From an uncultured Methanosarcinales archaeon (GTDB lineage Archaea; Nanobdellota; Nanobdellia; Woesearchaeales; CAZYIM01): DNA of 44,947 bases. The notes beneath the pieces are model-generated. The model was not told the origin of the DNA and made no database searches. It was given only the letters and a program-made list of their open reading frames with translations. Below, piece after piece: positions 23,035 to 35,764 of this stretch (its first letter is position 1; the number at the start of each line of letters is the position of its first letter). The DNA lies in assembly GCA_964647565.1 (NCBI GenBank), contig CAZYIM010000021.1, forward strand, positions 1-44,947, written 5' to 3'. Both the position numbers and the translations under genes were made by a program.

Positions 23035-26000
23035 GTGACCATGACCGAAGAAAATAAAACATCACAGATGTGCAATTCCAAGACAATTGGTCTGGCTAAT
23101 AAGAAGTATTTTAACAAGCCAGGAGTCATGCACATCCTTATTCTTTTCCTGATATTTCTTTCATTGATAAATGTGGTGAGTGCACTGGACCCATGGGAGC
23201 TAAAAAAGGCGCATATCGGCGTCATAATTGATCCTGGGCACGGCATGGATTCTGCCTCGGATCCAAACAGCAGTAATAAAACAACTAAAACTAGATATAA
23301 TGTTGGAGGTGCAGTTGGTAGAAGGAATATCCAAGAATGTGATTTTAATACGAACGGCCTTTGGTCAAGACCAGACGGCGGAAAACACTGGTTTAAGAAT
23401 CATACTAACGGCTACATGCGCAGGAATGAAACAGATATTGATTTTGTAGAGCCTGAAGCAAACACATTCTATTCGTTGGCCTTTAAATTGTTACTGGTGG
23501 ACGCCGGAATATTTACAGACTATACCCGTGACTTGGATATAACTTTCAATGAGCTGCGAAACAGCCCATCGCTTGGCATTGGCATGAATAATACAGAGGT
23601 TGATTGGAGGCATGAAGCTCCCAGATATTTTCGCACTAGAAACGATTCAGAACCCTTTAATTTATCACAATCATGGTTTGGTTCTGTTGTAGACAGCCGT
23701 AGAGAATTAGCTAATTGGTATCAAAAGGATAGTCAATACAATATCTCGAAAGATTTTATTTTGATAAGCGTTCACACAGATGCTGACGCTCCTGCAGCTA
23801 CAGGAACCACTGCAATGATTTCAAAGAGGACCAGGGTATGGGGCAACAATGGGGTACCTCCTATAGGAGTTGCCTTAATGCACAACAAGCGGGCTTTGGG
23901 TGAGTATTTGCATAATAGCACTATTGGTGCGATAAGGAGAAGCAATATTGAACCCAACTGGGTCAGTAGACATCCTCTTGCAAATATCAACACTGTTTAT
24001 GAAGGTGAGGGTGGTTATGGCGGGGTGGGGTTGCTGCGCTCACCTATTGTCCCTTCTGCGCTTGTTGAGGTTGGTTTTGCAACAAATTGTGCAAGGGACC
24101 GTCGCACAATATTGAATCTATCAAGACAAGATTCCATTGATACAGTTGGACAAGGTATTTTTGATAGTGTAAAAAGATATTTTAATGCGTCTGTGAACAG
24201 TGTGAACTTATCTGGAAACGGAAGCGATTACTTTCCACTTGGACAGAGATTCTTATATGTTAGAGGAACAGGCTATCCCAGGCCCATACCTTTTAATACA
24301 AATCGAATCGTGAAAATCCATGTCACCAAACATCTAGACTATAATCAAAGCGACAGTGATGTTCCTAATTGGACCAGACTAGTGAAATTCAAAGATGTTG
24401 ATTTTTTTAACATTTCTGCTAAAGTCAATAGGAGCGGGCATTTAATTAACAATACAGGCAATAATGTTGGGATCGTGTCTGTGTTTAAACCTCCCTTTCC
24501 AGGCAAGTTTGACGTTGTTGTTTCTCTTTATAATCATACTCATTTCCATTATGTGGATGCACTAGACAACATGTCTCTAGATGATGAAGTGAAGAGTGTA
24601 CCAGGCTTTGTTGTTCCAGGAGTCTTCCCTGTAAATTCGTCAGAGAACATAACAAAAACCTTCTTTGGCTGGAATAAAGTTAGTTCTGATCTTTATTTCA
24701 AAGCCATGCATCTGCCAAAGGAAACCAATGTTACTGTTTATGTTGTTAAATATGATCCGACCAGAAACTGGAGAGGAAATCCAATCAATCTTGATCAGAT
24801 TAAGATAGTCAATATAACAATTACGACTGATGAAAATGGATCTATAAATACAACTTTGATCTGGAACATTTCCAACTCCAGTGACATGAATGTCTTTAAC
24901 AATAGCGGAAGATTCAATATTGTAGTAGATATAGACAAAGACAAACATTACAACAAATCCCGGGATGTTCTGGATGTTAATGAGATCGGTGTCCTAAAAA
25001 CTGCTAACGGCTTGACACAATTAAATTATAACACTGCTAATGGAAGGCATGCAACTCTGGAATTAAAGGCATTTCTTCATGAGTGGGTGAATTCCAGCCT
25101 TGAAATCAATACAACTTTTGATGCTCTTACAGGCGTAATGCTAAGAAAATATTGGAATTTGAGGAAAATACCTCCTGCAGCCACTAACACATTCGGACCA
25201 AAAACAAATTCCAGAGTGCAATACGATGCAAATATCAGCTTCTTTATTGCTGTTGCAGCAACAGTGAATAAGACCAACAATGTAACCAGATATTTTCCCT
25301 ATACTCGCCAGATTAATGCGACTGCCATGGGCCTTCCGCCGTCTATTGCCGGAGCAAATTCCTTTAATGTCAATGTGACTGCTTATGTTGTGCCCTACAA
25401 CGTCTCTGATGACTGGTCAAAGAATAAAAACTTAGATGATATAAATGTTGCAGTAAAAGAGAAGATTATACTTGACAAAGATGGCGGTTTTACGCAAAAA
25501 CTGATCTGGGAGCCAAAGAATGATGTACAGAAGATCCTGGACAGTAACGGAACCTTTAACCTTGTTGTGGATGTTGACCTGGATAAGCATTATAATGTCA
25601 GCAGGGATATTGTTGACATTGTCGCTTCTGACAATAAATATGGATTCAGGGTCGGTTTTGCAAACACATCTGACGAAAACGGCGTCTTTGATGGTACGCT
25701 TCCGTATGACAGCCCTGTTTATGTAAAAGGAGTCGGCTTTCCAAAAAGAAATGTACACTTATTTGTTGTCAGTAAAGGCGAATGGGCTGAGAATGAGGAT
25801 ATAACAGATCCTATCAATAAGGTTGAGAATGTAGAAATCAAGGCTGATGGCAGGCTGGATAATACCAAGATATGGAATACGCCTGTTAAAGATAATTGTA
25901 ACATAAAATATTATATCATTGTTGATGTGAACCAGGACAATAAATTCAACAAAGAATGGGATGTAATTAGCAGTTTTAACATAATACCGAAGGGTCCGGA

Positions 26001-26586
26001 TGAGGTGTGTGCTGTGGCTAATGCGGCAGATTATGGGGTCCCTCAGAAAAGGAAACGTATTTTTATTATAGGTTCAAAAAAAGGATTTAAAACAAATGAA
26101 CCCAAAAAAACACATTGTCACCCTGATAAATGTGATATTACTGGCCTTCAACCCTATGTTGGTGTTGGTAAAGTAATATCTAAATTTGATAAACCTGAAT
26201 TTTTTGAAAAAGAAGAAATTACTAAAAAAGGAACATATGGACCAGACCTAAAAGAAGTTCCACCTGGAAAAAATTATATTGCTTTAACTGCAAGAAATAA
26301 TTATCCAAATCCTAAATTCGTTGCTGGAAAAAGGTTTTGGAGTTTTTTGCTTAAACTACATCCAGAATTACCTTCTTGGACAATAGCTGCACAACCCGGC
26401 CCGTGGGTAGGACCATTTCATTGGACTTCACGAAGACTAAGAGTGCCTGAGATTGCAGCAATACAAACTTTTCCAGAAAAGTATATCTTTGTTGGTAGCA
26501 GAAGATCTATCCAAAAGCAGATTGGCAACGCAGTCCCACCATTATTAGCACAAAGAATGATTGAATTTTTAAAGGATAACCTATGA
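23035..26586 (+). CDS. Secreted N-acetylmuramoyl-L-alanine amidase (Amidase_3) with beta-rich repeats and PG-binding-like insert, fused in frame to the C-terminal half of a C5 DNA methyltransferase
   Basis: Signal/TM; IIDPGHG, E, ISVHTDA, PSALVEVGF. About four repeats ending FN(I/L)VVD.D.D..(Y/F)N...D. From about 26014: NAADYGVPQKRKR, RRLRVPE, QTFP, KQIGNAVPP. Confidence 0.8.
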   Translation: MTMTEENKTSQMCNSKTIGLANKKYFNKPGVMHILILFLIFLSLINVVSALDPWELKKAHIGVIIDPGHGMDSASDPNSSNKTTKTRYNVGGAVGRRNIQECDFNTNGLWSRPDGGKHWFKNHTNGYMRRNETDIDFVEPEANTFYSLAFKLLLVDAGIFTDYTRDLDITFNELRNSPSLGIGMNNTEVDWRHEAPRYFRTRNDSEPFNLSQSWFGSVVDSRRELANWYQKDSQYNISKDFILISVHTDADAPAATGTTAMISKRTRVWGNNGVPPIGVALMHNKRALGEYLHNSTIGAIRRSNIEPNWVSRHPLANINTVYEGEGGYGGVGLLRSPIVPSALVEVGFATNCARDRRTILNLSRQDSIDTVGQGIFDSVKRYFNASVNSVNLSGNGSDYFPLGQRFLYVRGTGYPRPIPFNTNRIVKIHVTKHLDYNQSDSDVPNWTRLVKFKDVDFFNISAKVNRSGHLINNTGNNVGIVSVFKPPFPGKFDVVVSLYNHTHFHYVDALDNMSLDDEVKSVPGFVVPGVFPVNSSENITKTFFGWNKVSSDLYFKAMHLPKETNVTVYVVKYDPTRNWRGNPINLDQIKIVNITITTDENGSINTTLIWNISNSSDMNVFNNSGRFNIVVDIDKDKHYNKSRDVLDVNEIGVLKTANGLTQLNYNTANGRHATLELKAFLHEWVNSSLEINTTFDALTGVMLRKYWNLRKIPPAATNTFGPKTNSRVQYDANISFFIAVAATVNKTNNVTRYFPYTRQINATAMGLPPSIAGANSFNVNVTAYVVPYNVSDDWSKNKNLDDINVAVKEKIILDKDGGFTQKLIWEPKNDVQKILDSNGTFNLVVDVDLDKHYNVSRDIVDIVASDNKYGFRVGFANTSDENGVFDGTLPYDSPVYVKGVGFPKRNVHLFVVSKGEWAENEDITDPINKVENVEIKADGRLDNTKIWNTPVKDNCNIKYYIIVDVNQDNKFNKEWDVISSFNIIPKGPDEVCAVANAADYGVPQKRKRIFIIGSKKGFKTNEPKKTHCHPDKCDITGLQPYVGVGKVISKFDKPEFFEKEEITKKGTYGPDLKEVPPGKNYIALTARNNYPNPKFVAGKRFWSFLLKLHPELPSWTIAAQPGPWVGPFHWTSRRLRVPEIAAIQTFPEKYIFVGSRRSIQKQIGNAVPPLLAQRMIEFLKDNL

Positions 26587-27647
26587 CAAAAAGAAAACCA
26601 ACTGTAATAAGTATATTCTCAGGTGCGGGTGGTATTGATATCGGCTTTGAGAAAGCAGGATTTAGAATTATTTATTCTACTGATTATTGGGAACCTGCAT
26701 GTAATAGTATGAAAAAGAACAAGATTAGTAATCTTGTTGAATGTAAAGATATTAGAGATGTTGATTTTAAAGCTATTTTGAAAAAAAACAAGCTTAATGA
26801 AATAGATTGCGTAATTGGTGGACCCCCCTGCCCAGCATATTCTAAATCCAGGTTTTATCTTACTCAGAAAAAGAGAGCCTTAGATGATGAAAATGCGTTT
26901 ACACTTTTTGAATACTTTCGAGCCATAAAAGAATTAAAACCTAAAGTCTTTTTTTTTGAGAATGTTCACGGATTTGTTTTTAAACCTCATCTAGCAGCAT
27001 TTAATTTCTTAATGGAAGAATCTGAAAAACTAGGATATGAAATAACGTACAAGGTAGTAAACGCTGCTAACTATGGAGTTCCACAAATCAGAGAGCGATT
27101 CATATGCGTCGGCGTAAAAAAAGGTCAAAGAAAATTTAATTTCCCAGATGAGACTCATTTTAACCCTGATAAAAAAGGAACATTGAACACATTCACAGGT
27201 AAAAAATCTTGGGTGACCTGTAAGGACGTCATTGGAGACTTGGATGTTATTTTACCTGAAGACAAGAATATGCAAGCAGGATCAAAACACAAAAATCTGC
27301 TCAAACAAATTCCTCCCGGACAAAACTATCTATTTTTCACAAAAGAAAGAGGTCATCCTAATCCAAAATTTAAATGGCGTTCTCGATATTGGTCGTTTTT
27401 ATTAAAGCTTTCTCCCGAAAAACCATCTTGGACTATACAAGCAAGTCATTCAAATAATATGGGTCCGTTTCATTGGAAAAACAGATTCTTAAGAATTGCT
27501 GAAATAAAGAGACTACAAACATTTCCTGATGATTATCAGTTTGTAGGAGATTATAGAACACAATGGAGACAAATTGGCAATGCGGTGCCACCATTATTAG
27601 TCCAAAAAATTTCAGAAGCAATAAAAGTCCAATTATTCAGTAATTAA
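26583..27647 (+). CDS. dcm: DNA (cytosine-5)-methyltransferase
   Basis: FSGAGG (motif I), GGPPC (IV), FFFENV (VI), YGVPQ.RER (VIII), RQIGNAVPP (X). Confidence 0.96.
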   Translation: MTKRKPTVISIFSGAGGIDIGFEKAGFRIIYSTDYWEPACNSMKKNKISNLVECKDIRDVDFKAILKKNKLNEIDCVIGGPPCPAYSKSRFYLTQKKRALDDENAFTLFEYFRAIKELKPKVFFFENVHGFVFKPHLAAFNFLMEESEKLGYEITYKVVNAANYGVPQIRERFICVGVKKGQRKFNFPDETHFNPDKKGTLNTFTGKKSWVTCKDVIGDLDVILPEDKNMQAGSKHKNLLKQIPPGQNYLFFTKERGHPNPKFKWRSRYWSFLLKLSPEKPSWTIQASHSNNMGPFHWKNRFLRIAEIKRLQTFPDDYQFVGDYRTQWRQIGNAVPPLLVQKISEAIKVQLFSN

Positions 27648-27834
27648 CTGAACAGTAACATTTATTTTTTAACACATCTCCGATTTTAAATCGCTTATAC
27701 GTATTGCTATGTCTTCTAGACTGGGACAACAATCTCCGTTCGTGATATTATATCAATATAATCGACTTTGTTATAACTCTGCATTAAGAAAGTAGAATAT
27801 AAACTTTTTCCATGTTTTTCCGGAGGTTTTCCGT

Positions 27835-28092
27835 CTAATCAAATAAACCCCTGCTATCAAATCCATGCTCTTTGATCCTTTTATTGATGGCCTGTGTTAT
27901 TTTAACTTTCATATTCTCAGAAAGTTGCCTTTGATTTTTAATAGCTCTGTTTATCACAGATCTATCACAGCCAGCAGCATTTGCAAGCTCATACTGACCT
28001 ATACTAAGCATTTCTAGGATTAGTTCAAGCTTTTTATTATCTGACATTTTAAGAGCCTTATAGAGTTGTTTAGCGTTGACTGGCAAAGTCAT
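27835..28092 (-). CDS. XRE/Cro-like helix-turn-helix protein
   Basis: IGQYELANAAGCDRSVINRAIKNQR. Confidence 0.75.
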   Translation of the reverse strand: MTLPVNAKQLYKALKMSDNKKLELILEMLSIGQYELANAAGCDRSVINRAIKNQRQLSENMKVKITQAINKRIKEHGFDSRGLFD

Positions 28093-28105
28093 ATAAGTAT
28101 AAGGC

Positions 28106-28269
28106 CCCTCAGTAGGTGAACTGAGGGGTGGAGCAAGAGGTATGGCAAAAAAACCTCTCCAAAACCTAAAACTAAACCTTACACTGGGAACCGGTGCGGA
28201 ATATTCATCAGGAAAGTTGGCATCTGCAGATTCTATTCAAATATCTTATTGAATATATACACCTCCGCA
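28106..28269. other. Cluster of stem-loops upstream of HTH gene
   Basis: CCCCTCAGT-aggtga-ACTGAGGGG; GAGG...CCTC; GCGGAATATTCA...TGAATAT...TCCGC. Confidence 0.45.
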
Positions 28270-28469
28270 TGGCCAACATCGAAAAAAAGAGATCCAAATA
28301 AGTAAGTAACGCAACTCATATAAAAATCTATCTGAACGGTTTATTGACGAGAAACCGTCGAAAAATTAAAATATTTATTCGTTTTTTATAGGAGTAATTT
28401 TACATATAAAAATAAAGAATATGAGGATAAAAATAACTTTTTGCCCCACATAATTGAAGTAAAAATACT

Positions 28470-28484
28470 ATGCCCCGAGCGGGA
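28470..28484 (-). repeat. att-like copy of tRNA-Glu 3' end (copy 3)
   Basis: ATGCCCCGAGCGGGA, identical to 33855-33869. Confidence 0.85.
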
Positions 28485-28518
28485 TGGGAAAAAAGTTTAT
28501 AATCTGAAGCATAACTGA

Positions 28519-28932
28519 TTATGAGAAATAAGCATCTTTTATTTCCTTGATAAAGTCCTTAATCTCGGCTAAGACAGCTTCAGCTTCCTTAGCAGATATA
28601 TCTTTACCATAATAATTAATTGCGTTCCTAAGTTTTCTAAAGTTGTCAAAGTTTGATCCGAGCTTTGATGCGTTAAGAATCTCTTTAAGGAAAGCACAAT
28701 AGCACTCATGATTGTAGACCTTAAAGCCTTTTCGTATGGCTAATGCTTCTAAAAGTTCCCTTAATGCATCATAGGACAGGCTTATTTTCGAGGCAGCTGT
28801 TGTATCATCAAGTGGTAGTCTTTCTTGAGTCTTAAACTTGTTTTCAGAGGATTTAAGCAATGCAGATATCAGGTTTTTATCAGTCTTTGCCTGCTTGACA
28901 AGTTTTTTTCGTTTGCATGTTGTCCAATCCAT
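28519..28932 (-). CDS. HEPN-domain protein (toxin of MNT-HEPN pair)
   Basis: Y...RE..EAL...G.K..NHEC; R.LRN.I.YYG (Rx4-6 motif with H replaced by Y); directly downstream of MNT. Confidence 0.8.
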   Translation of the reverse strand: MDWTTCKRKKLVKQAKTDKNLISALLKSSENKFKTQERLPLDDTTAASKISLSYDALRELLEALAIRKGFKVYNHECYCAFLKEILNASKLGSNFDNFRKLRNAINYYGKDISAKEAEAVLAEIKDFIKEIKDAYFS

Positions 28933-28934
28933 GC

Positions 28935-29444
28935 TTACCAACCCCCTACCAGTATCAACCCATCCATGATATTCCTTATGAGCTCTTTGGGAACATCTTC
29001 TTTCTTTGTGAAAACAAATTGCTGGATGGTGCGTCCAAGCTTTTTCTCAAATTTTTCTAGATTAATCTTCTTTTCTGAAGCAGAGAAAATGGCCAGGTCA
29101 ATATCGGAATTCTCGTTTATCTCGGCCTTTGAGAATGAGCCGAAAAGGATTACTAGTGGCTTAACCAACTCTTCTCCAAAGAAATCCGTTAGGCCTGCCT
29201 TTTCAAATATGTAAAGCCAGTATGCTCTCGAGAGGCTGATGAAGAGCTTGTCGTCCTTGTTGGCTGAAAAGTATAGATAGTTCTTTTCAATTTCTCTGAC
29301 CAGTAATCCTTCTTTGTGCAATCTCGAGAGAAATTTAGATGCTGAAGGAGGACTTATCTTGGACAGTCTTGCATATTCTCTAACATTATACCTTTTATAA
29401 TTATCCTCAAAAAAAGGTTTTAAAGTGTTAAATATTTTTAACAT
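28935..29444 (-). CDS. wHTH + minimal nucleotidyltransferase (MNT antitoxin)
   Basis: VREYAR...SPPSASK.L HTH; ILFGSFSK.E...SDIDLAI. Confidence 0.9.
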   Translation of the reverse strand: MLKIFNTLKPFFEDNYKRYNVREYARLSKISPPSASKFLSRLHKEGLLVREIEKNYLYFSANKDDKLFISLSRAYWLYIFEKAGLTDFFGEELVKPLVILFGSFSKAEINENSDIDLAIFSASEKKINLEKFEKKLGRTIQQFVFTKKEDVPKELIRNIMDGLILVGGW

Positions 29445-29471
29445 GTGTTAATATAAATTAACATCTGTTTA
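29438..29471. promoter_or_regulatory. Tandem palindromic operators over MNT start
   Basis: TTAACATGTGTTAA and TTAACATCTGTTTA, 20 bp apart. Confidence 0.6.
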
Positions 29472-29494
29472 AATATTTTTCTGTTTTAGAAAAG

Positions 29495-29539
29495 ATGCCC
29501 TGAGCGGGGCGTGGACTAAAAATTGATAAAACAGGGCAT
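29495..29539 (-). repeat. att-like copy of tRNA-Glu 3' end with inverted end (copy 2)
   Basis: ATGCCCTGAGCGGG (one mismatch to the tRNA) ... CAGGGCAT; 8-bp inverted repeat. Confidence 0.75.
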
Positions 29540-29614
29540 AAAATCCAAGTTTAGTTAATTTATAAAGCCTTTCAGTCAGTTTAAACTAACAGTACAATCT
29601 GAATATTTGTTTAT

Positions 29615-29640
29615 GTTTCCATGTTGAGCAACATAGAAAC
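29615..29640. promoter_or_regulatory. ArsR operator candidate
   Basis: GTTTCcATGTTG-AG-CAACATaGAAAC immediately before a TTTATATA box. Confidence 0.65.
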
Positions 29641-29671
29641 CTTTATATATTTGATATTTTAAGAAACAATC

Positions 29672-29941
29672 ATGCCTGATGAAAAACTAGCAAGAGCGAT
29701 CCGATCAAGAGTCAGAAGGGATATCCTTCATATTCTTGCCAAGAAACCAAAACAACCGGTCCATCTGATAGCTGATGAGCTTGACATAACAGAATCTTCT
29801 GCGTCAAAACACCTGAAATTATTGCATGACCTGGGAATACTGGTATTTAATGACGAGGGGAAGGAAAGATTCTATTCATTAAAGATCGATGAGATAAAAG
29901 ATTTGCTTACAGCCTATGACTTAGTCATAAAAAAACTTTAA
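29672..29941 (+). CDS. ArsR/SmtB-family regulator
   Basis: R..IL..L...V..IA..L....S..S.HL..L...G wHTH. Confidence 0.9.
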   Translation: MPDEKLARAIRSRVRRDILHILAKKPKQPVHLIADELDITESSASKHLKLLHDLGILVFNDEGKERFYSLKIDEIKDLLTAYDLVIKKL

Positions 29942-29958
29942 GTAGATTTATCAAGAAA

Positions 29959-32685
29959 ATGGTTGATTCGGAAATCAATTGGTATTCAAAGACAGTCAGC
30001 GAGACCTTGCTAGAATTAGATACATCTTCAGAAGGTTTGAGTTCTCAAGAGGCTGAAGCAAGATTGAGATTAAACGGGCCGAACTCCCTTGCACATGATG
30101 AAAAAAACAAGACCCTGAAGCTGTTATTCAGAAATTTCAATTCCATACTTATATACATTCTTTTAGTAAGTGCGATCATATCCCTTCTTTCCAGTCATAT
30201 GATTGAGTTAATTGTGATATTGATAATCATATTCTTTACAGGCATTTTTGGATTTATCCAAGAGTATCATGCCGGAAAAGCACTAAATGCACTATCAAAA
30301 ATCGCAGTCAAGAATGTTGAAATAATGCGTGACGGAAAGAAAGTCGAGATTGACAAAGAAGAAATTGTTATCGGAGATATCGTGCTTCTGAAAAGAGGCA
30401 TGATCGTACCAGCAGATATTCGAATAATGGAGTCCAAAGGTTTGTCTGCTGATGAATCAATACTAACAGGAGAGTCAGTCCAGAAATACAAGCGTTCTGA
30501 AGAGATAAACCAAGAAGATATTCTGATAAGTGATCAGGAAGACATACTCTTTGCAGGGACAAGCATCACAAACGGAACTGGGCTTGGAGTGGTTGTTGCA
30601 ACAGGCCTGGAATCAGAGATAGGAAAAATCTCTTTAAGACTTAAAAAGATAGGATTCCAGAAAAGCCCAATTCAAAATCAGATTGATGGTATGAGCAAAA
30701 GGATAGGTATTTTTGTGTTCTTTGCTTGCACTCTATTATTTCTTATATTAATTGGGAAGGATTTCGGACTTTTTCAGTCTCTAATGCTTGTTAGTGCTAT
30801 GGCTGTTTCAGGGATTCCTGAAAGCTTCCCATTGGCTCTGACCATGAGCCTTTCTAATGGCGTAAAAAGAATGGCGCGGACCAATGCTATCGTAAAGGAC
30901 TTGAGCTCGGTTGAGACCCTGGGAACAACAACTGTAATCTGTACAGACAAGACAGGCACCTTGACTGAGAACAAGATGCGTGTTGAACGTATTTTCTTTT
31001 CAGATGGCAAGGAAGTCCAGGTAAAAGGGCATGATTACAATCCAGAGAATGAATTTATTGTCAATGGGAGCGAAACAGACGCAAGATTCTTTGAGAAATA
31101 CCCGGAATTCTTCAATACATGTGTATTGTGCAATAACGCAAATCTTGCCCTTGAAGGGAATGAATGGAAGCTTTCAGGAGAACCTACTGAAGGCTCAATA
31201 CTGTCCTTGGCAAAAAGCACCAACTATAATGATCATCAGTTAAGGAAGGATAATAAACAGATCAAGGAGGTGGCATTTGATCCATTTGAAAAATTCATGA
31301 TAAGTGTCAATGAACATGAAAACGAGAAAACTGCATATCTAAAAGGGGCTTATGAGCAAGTAATAAGAAAATGCAAGTACATTAGGACTTCAAAAGGAAT
31401 AAAAAAACTGACCGCATCCCATATCAAAACTATTGAAAACCAAGCGCACAAATACAGCGATCTGACTTTAAGGATGCTGGCTCTTGCAACAAAGAGCATC
31501 AGGAAAATTGATGAAAGCCTTGAAACAGGGTTTATATTTGAAGGGATGGTAGGAATCGACGATCCTATTCGTAAAGAGGCTTTCAAGGCAATTGAGGAGT
31601 GTCAGAGTGCGAATGTAAAAGTCATAATGATTACAGGCGATCATAAGAAAACTGCCGAGAGCGTCGGAAGAAAGCTAGGGATTGTTACATCTGAAAAAGA
31701 TATGATCCTTGAGGGCCATGAGCTTGACAAGATGACGGATGAAGACCTGGATAAAGTTATACACCAAGTCGCTATATTCTCAAGAACAACACCAGACCAC
31801 AAGTTCAGAATAGTAAACTCACTCCAAAGAAAAGGAGAGATAGTTGCTATGACAGGCGATGGTGTGAATGATGCCCCTTCTTTGAAAAAAGCAGATATTG
31901 GCGTCAGCATGGGCAAGTCAGGTACAGATGTAGCAAGAGAAGCCTCAAACATGATACTAACAGATGACCATTTCTCAACCATAGTCAATGCTATCAGGGA
32001 AGGGAGAACCATCTACAGCAATATCAGGCGTTTCATATACTATCTGCTCACAGGTAACGCAACAGAGGTTCTGCTTATATTCTTAGCTGTCCTGATAGGG
32101 ATAATCACTCCATTGACCGCTTTAATGATCCTATTCATTAACCTTATAACCAGCACATTTCCCGCACTTGCGTTAAGCATAGAGAAGACCCATCTGAAAG
32201 TCATGAAGCAGAAACCCCGTAATCCTGATGAAAAACTATTATCTAACTATATTCTTTTAAAGATATTTGTGTTGGTGCCATTGATATTATTAGGTACTTT
32301 GGCTTTATTCTTATGGGAGTTAAACATAACAGGAGGCGAAATTGAGAAGGCAAGAACCCTTGCCTTTGCAGCACTGATAATATTTGAACTTATGCATGCA
32401 TTCAATGCACGAAATCTGCATACAACAATCTTCAGCAAAGACTTCTTCTCTAACAAGTATATATTCATCGCTGTATTTATATCACTATCCCTGACAATCG
32501 TGGCAATTTATACAAACCTAGGTCAAAGCATATTCCAGACAACTGCCTTGAATCTTACAGAATGGTTGATAATTATCGGAGTCAGCAGTTTAGTCATAGT
32601 TGTTTCTGAAACAATAAAGGCATTGATCAAGAGCGAATTCAAAGAACAGAAAAGGCTTAAAGGCCTGGAAATAAGCGTTGAATAG
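29959..32685 (+). CDS. P-type II cation-transporting ATPase (Ca2+/Na+-type)
   Basis: LTGES, IPESFP, DKTGTLT, KGA, ITGD, TGDGVNDAPSLK. Confidence 0.96.
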   Translation: MVDSEINWYSKTVSETLLELDTSSEGLSSQEAEARLRLNGPNSLAHDEKNKTLKLLFRNFNSILIYILLVSAIISLLSSHMIELIVILIIIFFTGIFGFIQEYHAGKALNALSKIAVKNVEIMRDGKKVEIDKEEIVIGDIVLLKRGMIVPADIRIMESKGLSADESILTGESVQKYKRSEEINQEDILISDQEDILFAGTSITNGTGLGVVVATGLESEIGKISLRLKKIGFQKSPIQNQIDGMSKRIGIFVFFACTLLFLILIGKDFGLFQSLMLVSAMAVSGIPESFPLALTMSLSNGVKRMARTNAIVKDLSSVETLGTTTVICTDKTGTLTENKMRVERIFFSDGKEVQVKGHDYNPENEFIVNGSETDARFFEKYPEFFNTCVLCNNANLALEGNEWKLSGEPTEGSILSLAKSTNYNDHQLRKDNKQIKEVAFDPFEKFMISVNEHENEKTAYLKGAYEQVIRKCKYIRTSKGIKKLTASHIKTIENQAHKYSDLTLRMLALATKSIRKIDESLETGFIFEGMVGIDDPIRKEAFKAIEECQSANVKVIMITGDHKKTAESVGRKLGIVTSEKDMILEGHELDKMTDEDLDKVIHQVAIFSRTTPDHKFRIVNSLQRKGEIVAMTGDGVNDAPSLKKADIGVSMGKSGTDVAREASNMILTDDHFSTIVNAIREGRTIYSNIRRFIYYLLTGNATEVLLIFLAVLIGIITPLTALMILFINLITSTFPALALSIEKTHLKVMKQKPRNPDEKLLSNYILLKIFVLVPLILLGTLALFLWELNITGGEIEKARTLAFAALIIFELMHAFNARNLHTTIFSKDFFSNKYIFIAVFISLSLTIVAIYTNLGQSIFQTTALNLTEWLIIIGVSSLVIVVSETIKALIKSEFKEQKRLKGLEISVE

Positions 32686-32784
32686 CTGAATAAGATGATC
32701 AAAATGGACTGGAACAATTTCATGTAGTGATGAAGAAGATTGTAACGATAATCTGTAATATAGTTAATATACTAGAAAATAAAG

Positions 32785-32828
32785 TGCCCCGAGCGGACAT
32801 AGTACCTTTTTGTGATATTTGATGGGCA
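32785..32828 (-). repeat. att-like copy of tRNA-Glu 3' end with inverted end (copy 1)
   Basis: TGCCCCGAGCGG identical to 33856-33867; site ends in GGGCA. Confidence 0.8.
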
Positions 32829-32834
32829 AACACC

Positions 32835-33791
32835 CTATTTTTTATGTATTTCTCGGAATTTTGAAATAAATTCTTGAGGAGATTCATTATTGATGTAGAA
32901 AATGCTGCTATCTTTTTCTGCTTCATAAAGAACAAGACCATATTTTGAAGTCATCTTTCGTAGCCAATAATGGTTTATTACTGAAAATCCCTCAAAATTC
33001 AGTTCTAGCTCATCACCCACATCATCAAAATACTTATCTAACTTTGTACCTTTGAATAAAGCCATAGTAGAATCAGACAGAAATTGATAAATCTCATTTT
33101 CTAAACCCAATTGTTCAAATGTCATTTGATCTCCTATAATATCTTTTGCGAACTTTTCTCTAAGACCATATATTCCTGAATCATTTTGTTTTAATATAGT
33201 GGTTGTTTGAACTGTTGGAACAAGAAGATATGATTTTGACGGGGTGACAACAATTTCACAAGCACGATTTCCTTGGGGCCTATTCAAATAAGTGTCAAAC
33301 AAAAGGGAATAAAGATCCTTGCCCATCGCCATCGGTGACTCAGTAGGGTGTGTATGAATCCCTATGGTGGCGCGTAATTCCCCTTCATTTTCAGGATCAT
33401 CAGGAAATAAGAATGTATCGCAAGCAACCCTCACAAGATTTCCTGAGTCATCCAATTCAGGAAGTTCAGATCTTTTTATATTGCCTGCTCGCCAATCTGA
33501 CGCATGTTCAGATAAGAATAATTTCCTATAAAACTCCATAAATTTCCATCTTTGTTCTGGATCTTTTTTCAAATCATAATTCTCAAGAAATTTTAGAGAT
33601 AACCTGTCTTTTAAGGAAGGATTCCGAAGGAACCGTTCCCATCTTTTTCTCAATCCAGAAAGGGAATTCGAAATTATAGAATCCGCTAAGTTTAATTCCT
33701 TAGGTAAAGCTCCTTTTTCAGAGTATTTATGATGCTTCACAATATCTTCTATAGCTGATAAAAATTGTATTGAAGTAAAACTATTTGACAT
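32835..33791 (-). CDS. Hypothetical protein with JAB/JAMM-like HxH-x10-D motif
   Basis: IGIHTHPTESPMAMGKDL followed by EIVVTP..Y beta strands; own TTTATAAATA box. Confidence 0.55.
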   Translation of the reverse strand: MSNSFTSIQFLSAIEDIVKHHKYSEKGALPKELNLADSIISNSLSGLRKRWERFLRNPSLKDRLSLKFLENYDLKKDPEQRWKFMEFYRKLFLSEHASDWRAGNIKRSELPELDDSGNLVRVACDTFLFPDDPENEGELRATIGIHTHPTESPMAMGKDLYSLLFDTYLNRPQGNRACEIVVTPSKSYLLVPTVQTTTILKQNDSGIYGLREKFAKDIIGDQMTFEQLGLENEIYQFLSDSTMALFKGTKLDKYFDDVGDELELNFEGFSVINHYWLRKMTSKYGLVLYEAEKDSSIFYINNESPQEFISKFREIHKK

Positions 33792-33855
33792 ATTGAATTA
33801 GGGTAAAATGTATTTATAAAGTTTTCGTTTATTAACCATTTAGAAGTAACAAAAA

Positions 33856-33993
33856 TGCCCCGAGCGGGAATTTCGTCTTGAGACAAAAGCCTTGTTGACT
33901 TTCTCATCAAGTATTCGAACCCACGTCATTGCCTTTCTCTAACCTTTTGGTTGCGAGAGGGCAATATGATTGGCCGGACTACACCATCGGGGC
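33856..33993 (-). tRNA. trnE: tRNA-Glu(CTC) with two introns: 37/38 (33935-33953, 19 nt) and 59/60 (33870-33913, 44 nt)
   Basis: Exons GCCCCGATGGTGTAGTCCGGCCAATCATATTGCCCTCTCG | AGGCAATGACGTGGGTTCGAA | TCCCGCTCGGGGCA fold into a cloverleaf. BHB helices are CTCT/AGAG and TTCG/CGAA. Confidence 0.93.
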
Positions 33994-34016
33994 ATATTTG
34001 ATTGTTAGTTTTTTTT

Positions 34017-34093
34017 TGTGTGGGCTTGAGTGTTAGCGAAACCCACTTCGCTGTCGATGGGCGAAAGCATCGGACTTTGCACCATCGGGGCAT
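34017..34093 (-). other. Structured element beginning with a copy of the tRNA-Glu 5' end
   Basis: ATGCCCCGATGGTG...AGTCCG matches the tRNA-Glu start; hairpins CGATGG/CCATCG, AGCGAA/TTCGCT and GTGGGTTT/AAGCCCAC. Confidence 0.55.
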
Positions 34094-34109
34094 CAAAAGT
34101 CCTATGATA

Positions 34110-34298
34110 TTACATGACATTGTGATCTCTGGCAAGGGCTTCTACAGACCGGTCAAAGGTCGCTTCTCCTTCTTTTGAGAAGAAACATCCAGGAACCTCT
34201 CCATTAGCCCTGTGAAATTCTACACACTCTGAGCATTTCCCGTGTCTTGAACAGCCAGGATATGTACAGGTGCATTCAATACTGTTATCGCATGTCAT
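34110..34298 (-). CDS. Small Cys-rich protein (DUF6485-like)
   Basis: C.CTY..C.RHG.C..CV..HR...EVP.CFF....E.TFDRS; ATG 3 nt after the tRNA-Lys end. Confidence 0.8.
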   Translation of the reverse strand: MTCDNSIECTCTYPGCSRHGKCSECVEFHRANGEVPGCFFSKEGEATFDRSVEALARDHNVM

Positions 34299-34301
34299 GG
34301 A

Positions 34302-34438
34302 TGGGCTCAGAGGGACATTCGCATCATGAGTTTGCACTCGATGACTTTCGAACCCCCGACCCCTTGGTTACTTTTAAAACAAAGTTAAACTTTGTTTATT
34401 AAGAGCCAAGTGCTCTAGCCAGGCTGAGCTATGAGCCC
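34302..34438 (-). tRNA. trnK: tRNA-Lys(CTT) with two introns: 37/38 (34369-34399, 31 nt) and 59/60 (34316-34346, 31 nt)
   Basis: Exons GGGCTCATAGCTCAGCCTGGCTAGAGCACTTGGCTCTTA | ACCAAGGGGTCGGGGGTTCGAA | TCCCTCTGAGCCCA; BHB-like junctions; TTTAAATA box upstream. Confidence 0.93.
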
Positions 34439-34479
34439 ATTTTAACTGTGAAACTTATATCATATTTAAAAGCTTTTCC

Positions 34480-35031
34480 TTAGAAAAACAACTTTTCAAT
34501 GTCTTCTAGCAACTGTACAAACCTATCATACCCTCTTTGTGCTCCAAAGTGATCTGCATCCTTAACCATGATTAGTTCAGAACCTAAGTTTGCAGCAAGT
34601 TCTTCCCCTTTCTTAACAGGAACATATGGATCGTCTGTAGATTGGTAAATAACAAACTTAGAACAGTTCTCCTTAATCTTAGCCCAGTCAAAATCCCTTT
34701 CAGCAAGAGTCTTATTTACAGCATCATAATCTATGTGCAGCGGACCCGTAAATCCTGCAACAAGGAAGCAACATTTAGGTTTCACATCAAGAAGCTCAAT
34801 AACATCCAATACAAATGCGCATCCAACACTGTGTGCAATAATGATAGAGTCATCTAACTTATTATTATATATAGAGATCACTTTCAGCCAGTTGTCTAGA
34901 TTCTGTTGTTCATAACCAGGAAATTGCGGAACATAAACCTCATGACCGAGCTTCTCCAACTTTGCTTTCAACCATTGGAACCAGTGTTCATCAGGATTTC
35001 CATTGGTCCCATGTATGATAAAGGTGTTCAT
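34480..35031 (-). CDS. RBBP9/YdeN-family alpha/beta hydrolase
   Basis: IIHG...HWF.WL, AHSVG, S.DDPYVP, ADHF. Confidence 0.92.
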   Translation of the reverse strand: MNTFIIHGTNGNPDEHWFQWLKAKLEKLGHEVYVPQFPGYEQQNLDNWLKVISIYNNKLDDSIIIAHSVGCAFVLDVIELLDVKPKCCFLVAGFTGPLHIDYDAVNKTLAERDFDWAKIKENCSKFVIYQSTDDPYVPVKKGEELAANLGSELIMVKDADHFGAQRGYDRFVQLLEDIEKLFF

Positions 35032-35071
35032 AGAAGTAAATTAAAAAAAAGAAATATAAAAATTTATTTGT

Positions 35072-35764
35072 TTAGAAGCTGTATTCCATGATTACACCGG
35101 CGTAGAGCTCATCCTGTATGTTTCTTTTGTCTAGCGACTTGGAGAATGAGATGGCAGGTGTTACACTAAGATTGCCGAAATTAATTGGGATTTTGACATT
35201 CAGTTCTGCATGGCTAAATCCGCTGTTTTCCCGGAAATAGTGGTGGTTATATCCTAGCTTTGCACTTATAGATAATGGGAACTTCTCGAAGTCATGGTCT
35301 GCTGAAATTTCTCCATATACTCCATCTCCTTCTTTGAAGTCGTAAACAATACTCATGCTCGGACTCAATAGGGTATCGAGAGAAACCGCTACATAAACTT
35401 CCTGGCTTTTTGCATTGATATCGGGGAAGGTCAGGTATGCATAACCTGCAGATACTGACACGTTCTCGCTCACTAGCATTGTATAGTCCGCAATGATGTC
35501 AGCTTCATTTATTTCTTTTGTGTCGGTCTTATAACTTCCAAAGCCTATGACTGTCAAGTTTTTGTATGTACCACTTACAGTTGGCTGCAATATTGGTTTC
35601 TCTGAGAAGGTCAGACCTCTGAACATGTGTTTGCTCATTGCATCTACCCGCGTACAGAATTCCATCTGGGATTTTGCTTCTTCTTTTTCCTGACTGATTC
35701 CGGGTCTAGCAATAGCTAATCCTCCAAGTAGGATTGCAGTCATTATGGTTTTCATTAGTTTCAT
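35072..35764 (-). CDS. TorF/TIGR02001-like outer-membrane beta-barrel protein
   Basis: Signal peptide; S...FRG......P.LQ, E.D...Y, SQEVY; alternating amphipathic strands; terminal Y-S-F. Confidence 0.7.
   Translation of the reverse strand: MKLMKTIMTAILLGGLAIARPGISQEKEEAKSQMEFCTRVDAMSKHMFRGLTFSEKPILQPTVSGTYKNLTVIGFGSYKTDTKEINEADIIADYTMLVSENVSVSAGYAYLTFPDINAKSQEVYVAVSLDTLLSPSMSIVYDFKEGDGVYGEISADHDFEKFPLSISAKLGYNHHYFRENSGFSHAELNVKIPINFGNLSVTPAISFSKSLDKRNIQDELYAGVIMEYSF

Follow-up and report, generated by a model that had tools for sequence, protein, structure and literature searches.

The stretch of DNA considered here, the window, is contig C21 of the assembly of an uncultured archaeon of the order Woesearchaeales, 44,947 nucleotides (nt) long, and positions 33856-34438 hold two neighbouring tRNA genes, tRNA-Glu(CUC) and tRNA-Lys(CUU), both on the minus strand and each interrupted by two introns, one at position 37/38 and one in the T loop at 59/60. 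The explanation that best accounts for this locus, and that is considered probable as a whole, is that these are two-intron tRNAs with a T-loop intron found across the lineage, and that the short repeats of the tRNA-Glu 3' end which lie downstream are an old array of integrase attachment (att) sites. The locus is a fresh instance of known phenomena, namely 59/60 introns, disrupted tRNA genes of the DPANN archaea and tandem arrays at tRNA ends. The assembly as a whole comprises 2.68 Mb at 38% G+C and is 87% complete. The two genes are laid out as follows.

33856-33993 (-): tRNA-Glu(CUC) gene; in-silico splicing followed by ARAGORN, fold z -4.9
33954-33993 (-): tRNA-Glu(CUC) exon 1, 40 nt
33935-33953 (-): tRNA-Glu(CUC) intron at 37/38, 19 nt
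33914-33934 (-): tRNA-Glu(CUC) exon 2, 21 nt
33870-33913 (-): tRNA-Glu(CUC) intron at 59/60 (T loop), 44 nt
33856-33869 (-): tRNA-Glu(CUC) exon 3, 14 nt
34302-34438 (-): tRNA-Lys(CUU) gene; in-silico splicing followed by ARAGORN, fold z -5.9, pair list
34400-34438 (-): tRNA-Lys(CUU) exon 1, 39 nt
34369-34399 (-): tRNA-Lys(CUU) intron at 37/38, 31 nt
34347-34368 (-): tRNA-Lys(CUU) exon 2, 22 nt
34316-34346 (-): tRNA-Lys(CUU) intron at 59/60 (T loop), 31 nt
34302-34315 (-): tRNA-Lys(CUU) exon 3, 14 nt

Neither gene is visible to standard searches of the raw window, in which ARAGORN reports 0 tRNA genes and Rfam 0 matches at gathering score; at permissive thresholds Rfam yields a single tRNA match of 14.9 bits, which lies over tRNA-Lys and is broken at the T arm. 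Once both introns are excised by script, ARAGORN recognises the genes as tRNA-Glu(ctc) and tRNA-Lys(ctt) and folds each into a complete cloverleaf, and the unspliced precursors receive no call. In-silico splicing and ARAGORN together confirm the introns that an earlier, sequence-only reading of this DNA had placed at 37/38 and 59/60 in both tRNAs. No second Glu(CUC) or Lys(CUU) gene was seen in the 2.68-Mb assembly: Rfam returns 10 tRNA matches over its cut-off (16 listed at E<=10), none of them Glu or Lys, and BLAST with the tRNA-Glu gene finds no second copy. Stems, conserved bases and both splice motifs are all intact in the two tRNAs, and both loci are probably working tRNA genes, spliced in vivo. 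Contigs from other organisms in the same metagenomes match tRNA-Glu exon 1 and then diverge at 33953-33955, the border of exon 1 and the first intron, a behaviour that fits conservation of the exon only.

The predicted folds of the precursors are better than those of all 200 shuffles in each case, and they give the splice sites a definite form. In both T-loop introns the bases U54-G57 (UUCG) pair with a CGAA near the 3' end of the intron in a helix of 4 bp, a 3-nt bulge (AUU in Glu, UGU in Lys) lies beside the T stem, and on the far side a bulge of 3-4 nt faces one unpaired base on the intron side; as modelled, the 59/60 motif is a bulge-helix-bulge that is close to the canonical form and slightly relaxed. 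By the usual rule, cleavage follows the second base of the bulge, which would put the cuts of the T-loop introns at 59/60. The 37/38 intron of Glu folds into a strict 3-4-3 motif, and that of Lys is relaxed because its central helix has only 3 bp. The TTCG/CGAA helices with 3-nt bulges that had been read from the letters are therefore borne out at both 59/60 introns, the shorter Lys 37/38 helix being the departure. The marks of bulge-helix-bulge tRNA introns are all present: the cloverleaf is restored on excision, bulges of about 3 nt flank a 4-bp helix (relaxed at Lys 37/38), and the genome encodes the splicing endonuclease EndA. Each transcript would undergo two cuts-and-joins by the archaeal splicing endonuclease and a ligase, at 37/38 and at 59/60, the latter in a bulge-helix-bulge that T-loop bases 54-57 would form with the 3' end of the intron.

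EndA is encoded by one gene on contig C4 (L001 1474-2190 (-)), 238 amino acids (aa) long, which stands head-to-head with an RNase Z-like gene and has one N-terminal and one catalytic domain (PF02778, PF01974); no second subunit was found even at E<=10 in the 87%-complete genome. Exactly one EndA match is present in 98 of the 101 genomes of the order that are at least 95% complete (100 genomes if one unpublished genome is left out), and the remaining three comprise two with two matches, one of these being a gene split at contig ends, and one with none. One gene with one domain of each type, and a single match in 98 of 101 genomes, point to the one-subunit (alpha4) kind of enzyme, which would act as a homotetramer. 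Among proteins of solved structure EndA is closest to the alpha subunit of N. equitans and to the M. jannaschii enzyme; it aligns to the latter (1A79) without a gap across query residues 92-238 and lacks the 6-residue insert of the former. About 67 lysine-rich residues precede the first mapped domain, and no loop of the CSL/ASL/L3 type with its conserved lysine was located in EndA by sequence alignment alone. The earlier expectation of a splicing endonuclease of relaxed specificity is thus answered in part, in that a single alpha-type gene has been identified and the loop associated with relaxed specificity has not been located.

Multiple introns per tRNA are not peculiar to this lineage. In the Thermoproteales tRNAs carry two or more introns, introns have been transposed and similar introns occur in unrelated tRNAs, as is the case here, although the Thermoproteales belong to another phylum and have an (alpha-beta)2 endonuclease with a crenarchaeal loop. 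The T-loop position has its own precedent, and the supposition that these tRNAs with non-canonical introns are of a known kind holds: in ARMAN-2 (Micrarchaeum), like this organism a DPANN host with many disrupted tRNA genes, pre-tRNA-Cys(GCA) and pre-tRNA-Pro(GGG) carry a 59/60 intron in a strict or relaxed bulge-helix-bulge, and the pre-tRNA-Cys with its 59/60 intron is cut in vitro by the archaeon's own endonuclease (Fujishima et al., 2011; PMC3239211). The ARMAN-2 enzyme is a three-unit epsilon2 type with a special loop, whereas here there is a single alpha unit that aligns without gaps to M. jannaschii over the aligned stretch, and the 59/60 introns of ARMAN-2 measure 13 nt compared with 16-44 nt in this genome, where they follow a form that is stereotyped across the order (PMC3239211). 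An alpha4-type EndA with an L3 loop has been described in DPANN archaea including a Woesearchaeota genome and has been tied to numerous tRNA genes that are disrupted or go undetected (Kaneta et al., 2018; PMC5829648); sequence alignment locates no such insert in the EndA considered here. When the literature on Woesearchaeota or DPANN was searched for 59/60 introns or for integrase sites, only general statements on DPANN were returned, and since '59/60' is not text-searchable this does not prove their absence from print.

It is clear that the T-loop intron is not confined to the two genes of the window. Over the full assembly ARAGORN reports 8 tRNA genes with default settings, a figure that rises to 18 once anticodon-loop introns are allowed. 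A strict structural scan, in which the T stem must have 3 or more G-C pairs, bases 54-57 must form a 4-bp helix and a matching 5' acceptor strand must lie upstream, combined with splice-and-scan of the genome using 190-nt flanks, recovers 17 tRNA loci with a 59/60 intron as against 0 in the reversed genome; a permissive version of the scan gave 62 loci against 25 in its control and was dropped. Both tRNAs of the window are among the 17, whose common form is GGTTCRAA, 16-44 nt, YGARAG and TCC. The corresponding pattern, GGTTCRAA-N15-45-YGARAGTCC, was found in 193 of the 301 genomes sampled from the order (185 of 293 when 8 unpublished genomes, each with matches, are left out), this reduced T-loop-intron pattern has more than 407 matches over the sampled genomes, and the reversed-pattern control gives 13 matches in 12 genomes. 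Five of 18 tRNA-Glu loci of relatives have the T-loop intron, and G022, which belongs to a different family of the order, again has adjacent Glu(ctc) and Lys(ctt) genes (L003, G022:C1:290784-293823), both with T-loop introns that are 76 nt each and alike. Two unrelated tRNAs, at C2:4320-4478 (-) of this genome and at G023:C62 (L011) of another family, carry 44-nt T-loop introns that share 79-81% identity with that of Glu. The occurrence of the intron in 17 genes and 193 of 301 genomes, together with the roughly 80% likeness across tRNAs, argues that it is old, order-wide and partly mobile, and not local to tRNA-Glu as a hotspot of integration.

Two further observations concern these tRNAs. A paralogue of the P-type ATPase of the window (35% identity) lies downstream of the tRNA at C2:4320-4478 and is cut by the contig end. 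A tRNA-Glu(UUC) at C48:14578-14722 shows, by eye, a D-loop insert and a 59/60 intron with no intron at 37/38, and ARAGORN mislabels it as Cys(aca).

The last exon of tRNA-Glu is itself repeated. The 14 nt of exon 3, TCCCGCTCGGGGCA, occur 4 times in the window at up to 2 mismatches, compared with 0.04 expected, and all copies lie on the tRNA strand downstream of tRNA-Glu, where they bound an array of 5.4 kb in three segments.

28470-28484 (-): exact copy of exon 3 and the T that follows it (15 nt), distal end of the array; repeat search (14 nt exact: 28471-28484)
29496-29509 (-): imperfect copy of exon 3, CCCCGCTCAGGGCA, 2 mismatches; repeat search
32785-32798 (-): imperfect copy of exon 3, GTCCGCTCGGGGCA, 2 mismatches, identity from position 62; repeat search
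32799-33855 (-): segment 1, a family-less 318-aa open reading frame (ORF; 32835-33791); ORF list
29510-32784 (+): segment 2, ArsR/SmtB-type regulator (29672-29941) and P-type cation ATPase (29959-32685); Pfam, NCBIfam
28485-29495 (-): segment 3, MntA-like nucleotidyltransferase (28935-29444) overlapping a 140-aa ORF (28519-28941); Pfam PF18765, PF01909

The exact copy starts with T60, right at the intron/exon junction, and the two imperfect copies match only from 61 or 62, such that the copies start at 60, 61 and 62 and measure 12-15 nt; the equation of the repeat with the 14-nt terminal exon, drawn in the sequence-only reading, is right for the exact copy and does not extend to the others. 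Each copy is followed by a T-rich tract, as is tRNA-Glu itself, and similarity to the trailer runs on beyond the tRNA end at 70-77% for about 18 nt more (repeat family D1, 30 nt). Extension of the repeats upstream into the contiguous T loop was considered and, at 4/6 and 5/10 matches, is estimated not to be significant. No older att copy was found left of 28471 at up to 4 mismatches, tRNA-Lys exon 3 has no second copy in the window, and Glu is the only one of the 17 T-loop-intron tRNA genes with kb-scale repeats of its last exon. Within the segments, the 318-aa ORF has no Pfam or NCBIfam match, its Atlas scores being at most 0.88 with a weak Prok-JAB lead, the MntA match of the nucleotidyltransferase in NCBIfam is below cut-off, and its 140-aa partner has no family match over threshold; judged by sequence, the MntA-like gene and its partner resemble a toxin-antitoxin pair.

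The interpretation of these repeats draws on the tyrosine integrases of the order. Six tyrosine-recombinase matches are present in this genome; the integrase at C22:42523-43749 starts 90 nt past a tRNA with a T-loop intron, a paralogue on C2 follows a bare tRNA-end fragment, and a truncated copy on C33 follows tRNA-Ser. Relatives of the C22 integrase, a XerA-like family with a C-terminal zinc ribbon, occur in 46 of the 301 genomes, and in 23 of 30 fetched loci the integrase starts about 100 nt past the end of a tRNA gene that reads the same way. These tRNAs include Ser, Thr, Phe, Cys and Glu, the last with ctc in two loci and ttc in one; at 3 of the 23 loci, including one of this genome, that tRNA has a T-loop intron, two further loci show interrupted tRNA-Ser genes by eye, and L136 was excluded because the interrupted T arm of its integrase-adjacent tRNA could not be resolved. 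For 16 elements up to 20 kb downstream was fetched, a tRNA being at the head in 14, and 10 of these 14 have the tRNA end repeated exactly, over 13-19 nt (11 + 12 nt in one), at a distance of 5-19 kb; L165, L166, L169 and L173 have none. All 10 tRNAs with such attL/attR pairs have uninterrupted T loops, and their identity blocks start at 62, 63, 63, 63, 58, 59, 57, 63, 60 and 61 and reach the tRNA 3' end or as much as 14 nt past it, so that 7 of 10 begin at 60-63, downstream of the intron site, and 3 of 10 at 57-59; one of the 10 is a tRNA-Glu(ctc), in G025, with a 13-nt block from position 62. Short duplications after three tRNAs without the T-loop intron (C1 Ser, C63, C22 Gly) also begin at 60 or 61.

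Since att blocks at uninterrupted tRNAs start at 57-63, a repeat of about 14 nt covering the last exon is the normal footprint of the family, and the window repeats fall inside the range of the 10 blocks in both length and position. The repeat equals the last exon because the intron site at 59/60 and the usual 5' limit of att identity coincide, and the idea that it stops at 60 on account of the intron is not supported by the 10 uninterrupted tRNAs or by the short duplications that begin at 60/61. The proposal that the repeats are copies of an attachment site is plausible, given 4 occurrences where 0.04 are expected and the agreement with the att blocks of 10 relatives; they look like ordinary integrase attachment sites and not like a consequence of the intron, which in all probability did not shape the site. 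By analogy, tRNA-Glu would be an attachment site for the order's tRNA-targeting tyrosine integrases, whose att identity would normally span only the 3' strand of the T stem and the acceptor stem, from 57-63 to the 3' end, and three successive insertions would have left a tandem array, now without an integrase, in which each insertion is closed by the last 12-15 nt of the tRNA. An integrase origin of the array is probable from the position, length and strand of the repeats and from the type of cargo. Archaeal tyrosine integrases are known to prefer tRNA 3' ends, the 5' limit being variable, to insert in tandem and often to lose their gene (PMC8371274), and the tRNA-Glu array is like such elements in its tRNA 3' end, short direct repeats, tandem order and missing integrase; it is unlike those reviewed in that the window has no integrase and the family of the relatives, XerA-like with a zinc ribbon, is uncharacterised (PMC8371274).

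Between the two tRNA genes of the window lie the following.

34020-34093 (-): decayed tRNA-Glu-like fragment; 14-nt exact repeat and alignment to spliced tRNA-Glu
34110-34298 (-): DUF6485 ORF, small and Cys-rich, lying between the tRNA-Glu fragment and tRNA-Lys; Pfam PF20095, E 1.2e-7

The fragment is situated 98 nt upstream of the intact tRNA-Glu gene and keeps the 5' acceptor strand and the start of the D arm, an anticodon-arm-like hairpin with the loop CTTTCGCC, which is a UUC-like anticodon loop with one extra base, and a T-stem-like GTGGG...CCCAC; the 3' acceptor strand is missing. Its first 14 nt (34080-34093) repeat 33982-33995 exactly, that is, the first 12 nt of the gene and 2 nt upstream (2 found, 0.08 expected), and it aligns to spliced tRNA-Glu with a score of 43 against a shuffle maximum of 27, the unspliced gene aligning less well. 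A comparable arrangement is known from the Caldiarchaeum tRNA-Thr locus, where an intron-bearing copy near mobile DNA has a 5' tRNA fragment upstream of it (Sugahara et al., 2012; PMC3293823), although here the fragment is the stated 98 nt upstream and no recombinase lies between fragment and gene (PMC3293823).

Elsewhere in the genome, hairpin elements of 50-95 nt stand directly after tRNAs (C48:14456-14521, C63:5547-5610, C22:32677-32770 (-), C1:106929-106990), and another is present in a different family of the order (L121, G069:C95). Their layout is as follows: inverted acceptor and T-stem 3' strands, GCCY, AGCAAC-NNN-GTTGCT, CRTG, a tRNA copy of 15-18 nt from 60/61 and a T run, with an outer stem that matches each adjoining tRNA; they could be mini att elements or terminator-like hairpins. 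The core also occurs with unrelated outer stems at C41:12939, C56:3635, C8:10194 and C27:23922, and the sequence CAGCAAC...GTTGCTC was found in 20 of 201 genomes (19 of 200 without one unpublished genome), mostly in coding-like sequence, with L121 alone repeating the post-tRNA arrangement. A tRNA-Ser-like 3' end, CGGGCCGTGGCG, occurs without a tRNA body at C2:124871-124882, C27:1880-1891 and C44:17795-17806 (one with 1 mismatch), each copy preceded by CTACGY or TATCGT and the C2 copy followed by an integrase gene; no tRNA matching it was found in the assembly. A further candidate att pair between C2 and C32 (14 nt, 1 mismatch) lies inside a long open frame and was set aside at an estimated chance level.

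Several findings weigh against the explanation given above. With the genome 87% complete, further tRNA copies or a second EndA subunit could be unassembled. Direct tRNA 3' repeats on the tRNA strand, as expected of integrated elements, are present, but no integrase lies inside the element: neither gene nor remnant was detected in the window (no PF00589 in a Pfam search of 29 ORFs), and tblastn of the window with two integrases of this genome gave nothing better than E 0.5. An empty site or alternative junction at the repeats was not seen in four DNA metagenome runs, which offer only short contigs over 27000-35500, and mobility of the segments is therefore inferred. The array cargo has no detected relative in the fetched integrase elements, the sole cargo-like match being a C5 methylase whose copy in the window lies outside the repeat-bounded array. 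The outermost copy is exact and the two inner copies differ at 2 positions each, a pattern that fits differing attP sequences, and the similarity that continues past the tRNA end into the trailer could also come from a simple local duplication.

The relation between intron and attachment site admits of other accounts. One alternative, an unlikely one, is adaptation at the level of the lineage, in which T-loop introns became common and integrases then evolved to need identity with the last exon only. That all 10 att blocks are short (13-19 nt) with none upstream of 57, that the intron signature is in 193 of 301 genomes and that integrases sit beside intron-bearing tRNAs would all agree with this; however, short tRNA 3' att sites exist in archaea that lack such introns, for example SNJ2 (PMC8371274), 3 of 10 blocks cross 59/60, and an identity block is not the same as a protein binding site, the comparison covering the integrases of this order. 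The statement that the elements target only the terminal exon is accurate as a description, but it describes a family trait found with and without the intron.

It is rather improbable that the repeats are not att sites at all and represent local duplication of a module of tRNA end and terminator, or chance retention, with the segments as ordinary chromosomal genes. The T-rich tract after each copy as after the tRNA, the similarity running into the trailer and the integrase-free window would suit such an origin, whereas the number of copies over expectation, all on the tRNA strand and all downstream, the island-typical cargo of metal-type regulator with ATPase and MntA-like pair, and the match in length and position to the att blocks of 10 elements speak for attachment sites.

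An equally improbable proposal holds that 59/60 and the 5' att limit at 57-63 are mechanistically linked, integrase-type insertions at the last 14 nt creating or spreading T-loop introns via the hairpin elements, with the tRNA-Glu array as an integron-like platform served in trans. Still less likely is the link in reverse form, that 59/60 introns were born from, or spread by, insertions at the crossover limit with hairpin att-elements as intermediates. The coincidence of intron site and att limit invites it, as do the hairpin elements after four tRNAs, and one more in another family, that end in a tRNA copy from 60/61, the decayed fragment 98 nt upstream of tRNA-Glu, the likeness of about 80% among T-loop introns of unrelated tRNAs and the similar model proposed for Caldiarchaeum (PMC3293823). 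Against this, the introns are by eye unlike exon 3, the hairpin core or the element ends, intron families can spread by other routes, and the YGAA box that a bulge-helix-bulge requires is missing from the hairpin elements.

The sequence-only reading had suggested that the T-loop intron arose to disrupt an integration hotspot, and the idea that tRNA introns block integration is in print (Randau and Soll, 2008, as summarised in PMC4090602). Applied here, the 59/60 intron would have been gained or kept at tRNA-Glu as a defence, the split T arm destroying the integrase target; the setting, an intron beside an integration site, is the same (PMC4090602), the intron sits just upstream of the repeat, and the 3 of 10 att blocks in relatives that start at 57-59 would be cut by such an intron. 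The same intron is present in 17 tRNA genes, however, with kb-scale last-exon repeats at Glu only, its signature is order-wide in 193 of 301 genomes, integrases directly follow T-loop-intron tRNAs at 3 of 23 loci, and 7 of 10 att blocks start past the intron site. The case thus differs from that of Randau and Soll in that the intron lies upstream of most att blocks and integrases are not kept away from such tRNAs (PMC4090602), and an origin of the intron as a local defence is very improbable, the suggestion not having stood up to these counts. That the two loci are dead genes, as their being missed by standard finders and the decayed fragment beside the Glu gene might hint, can practically be dismissed in view of their intact stems, conserved bases and splice motifs, the lack of any other Glu(CUC) or Lys(CUU) gene among those found and the same architecture in 17 genes and in relatives.

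Two other classes of mobile DNA were considered and rejected for the array. Casposons are marked by a target duplication of 14-15 bp, which the 15-nt repeat would suit, but the segment ends have no terminal inverted repeats and the assembly has no Cas1. An integron was set aside, there being no integrase in the window and the segment ends consisting of tRNA 3' sequence with no attC-like palindromes. Within segment 2, three DNA runs each have one contig from which 89 nt of the ArsR-type gene are missing (29694-29784); the shorter side of the joint is only 23 nt, and it may therefore stem from another organism. Beyond the distal end of the array, a frame of 1183 aa at 23035-27647 combines a large secreted-looking protein (weak Amidase_3) with the C-terminal half of a C5 DNA methylase and is directly followed by a complete C5 methylase gene (26583-27647); its sequence suggests that the upstream gene reads through into a truncated methylase.

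In the probable case that the locus combines lineage-wide T-loop introns with an old att array, its interest lies in an order-wide, stereotyped T-loop intron that coexists with a one-subunit enzyme, in an integrase family with short att sites and in the small hairpin elements. A one-subunit EndA without an obvious extra loop, in an order where 59/60 introns are common, is a good test case for the substrate range of these enzymes. The locus resembles a textbook case of introns fending off integrating elements and should not be cited as such: the match between repeat and last exon is also seen at tRNAs without the intron, and the locus therefore lends no support to the idea of introns acting against integration. 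In the 2.7-Mb genome the T-loop-intron signature recovers 17 more tRNA genes than the approximately 10 that standard tools see, a number that is small because most of the genes are interrupted, and as roughly two in three of the genomes sampled from the order have the signature, the number of tRNA genes counted in these archaea is systematically too low.

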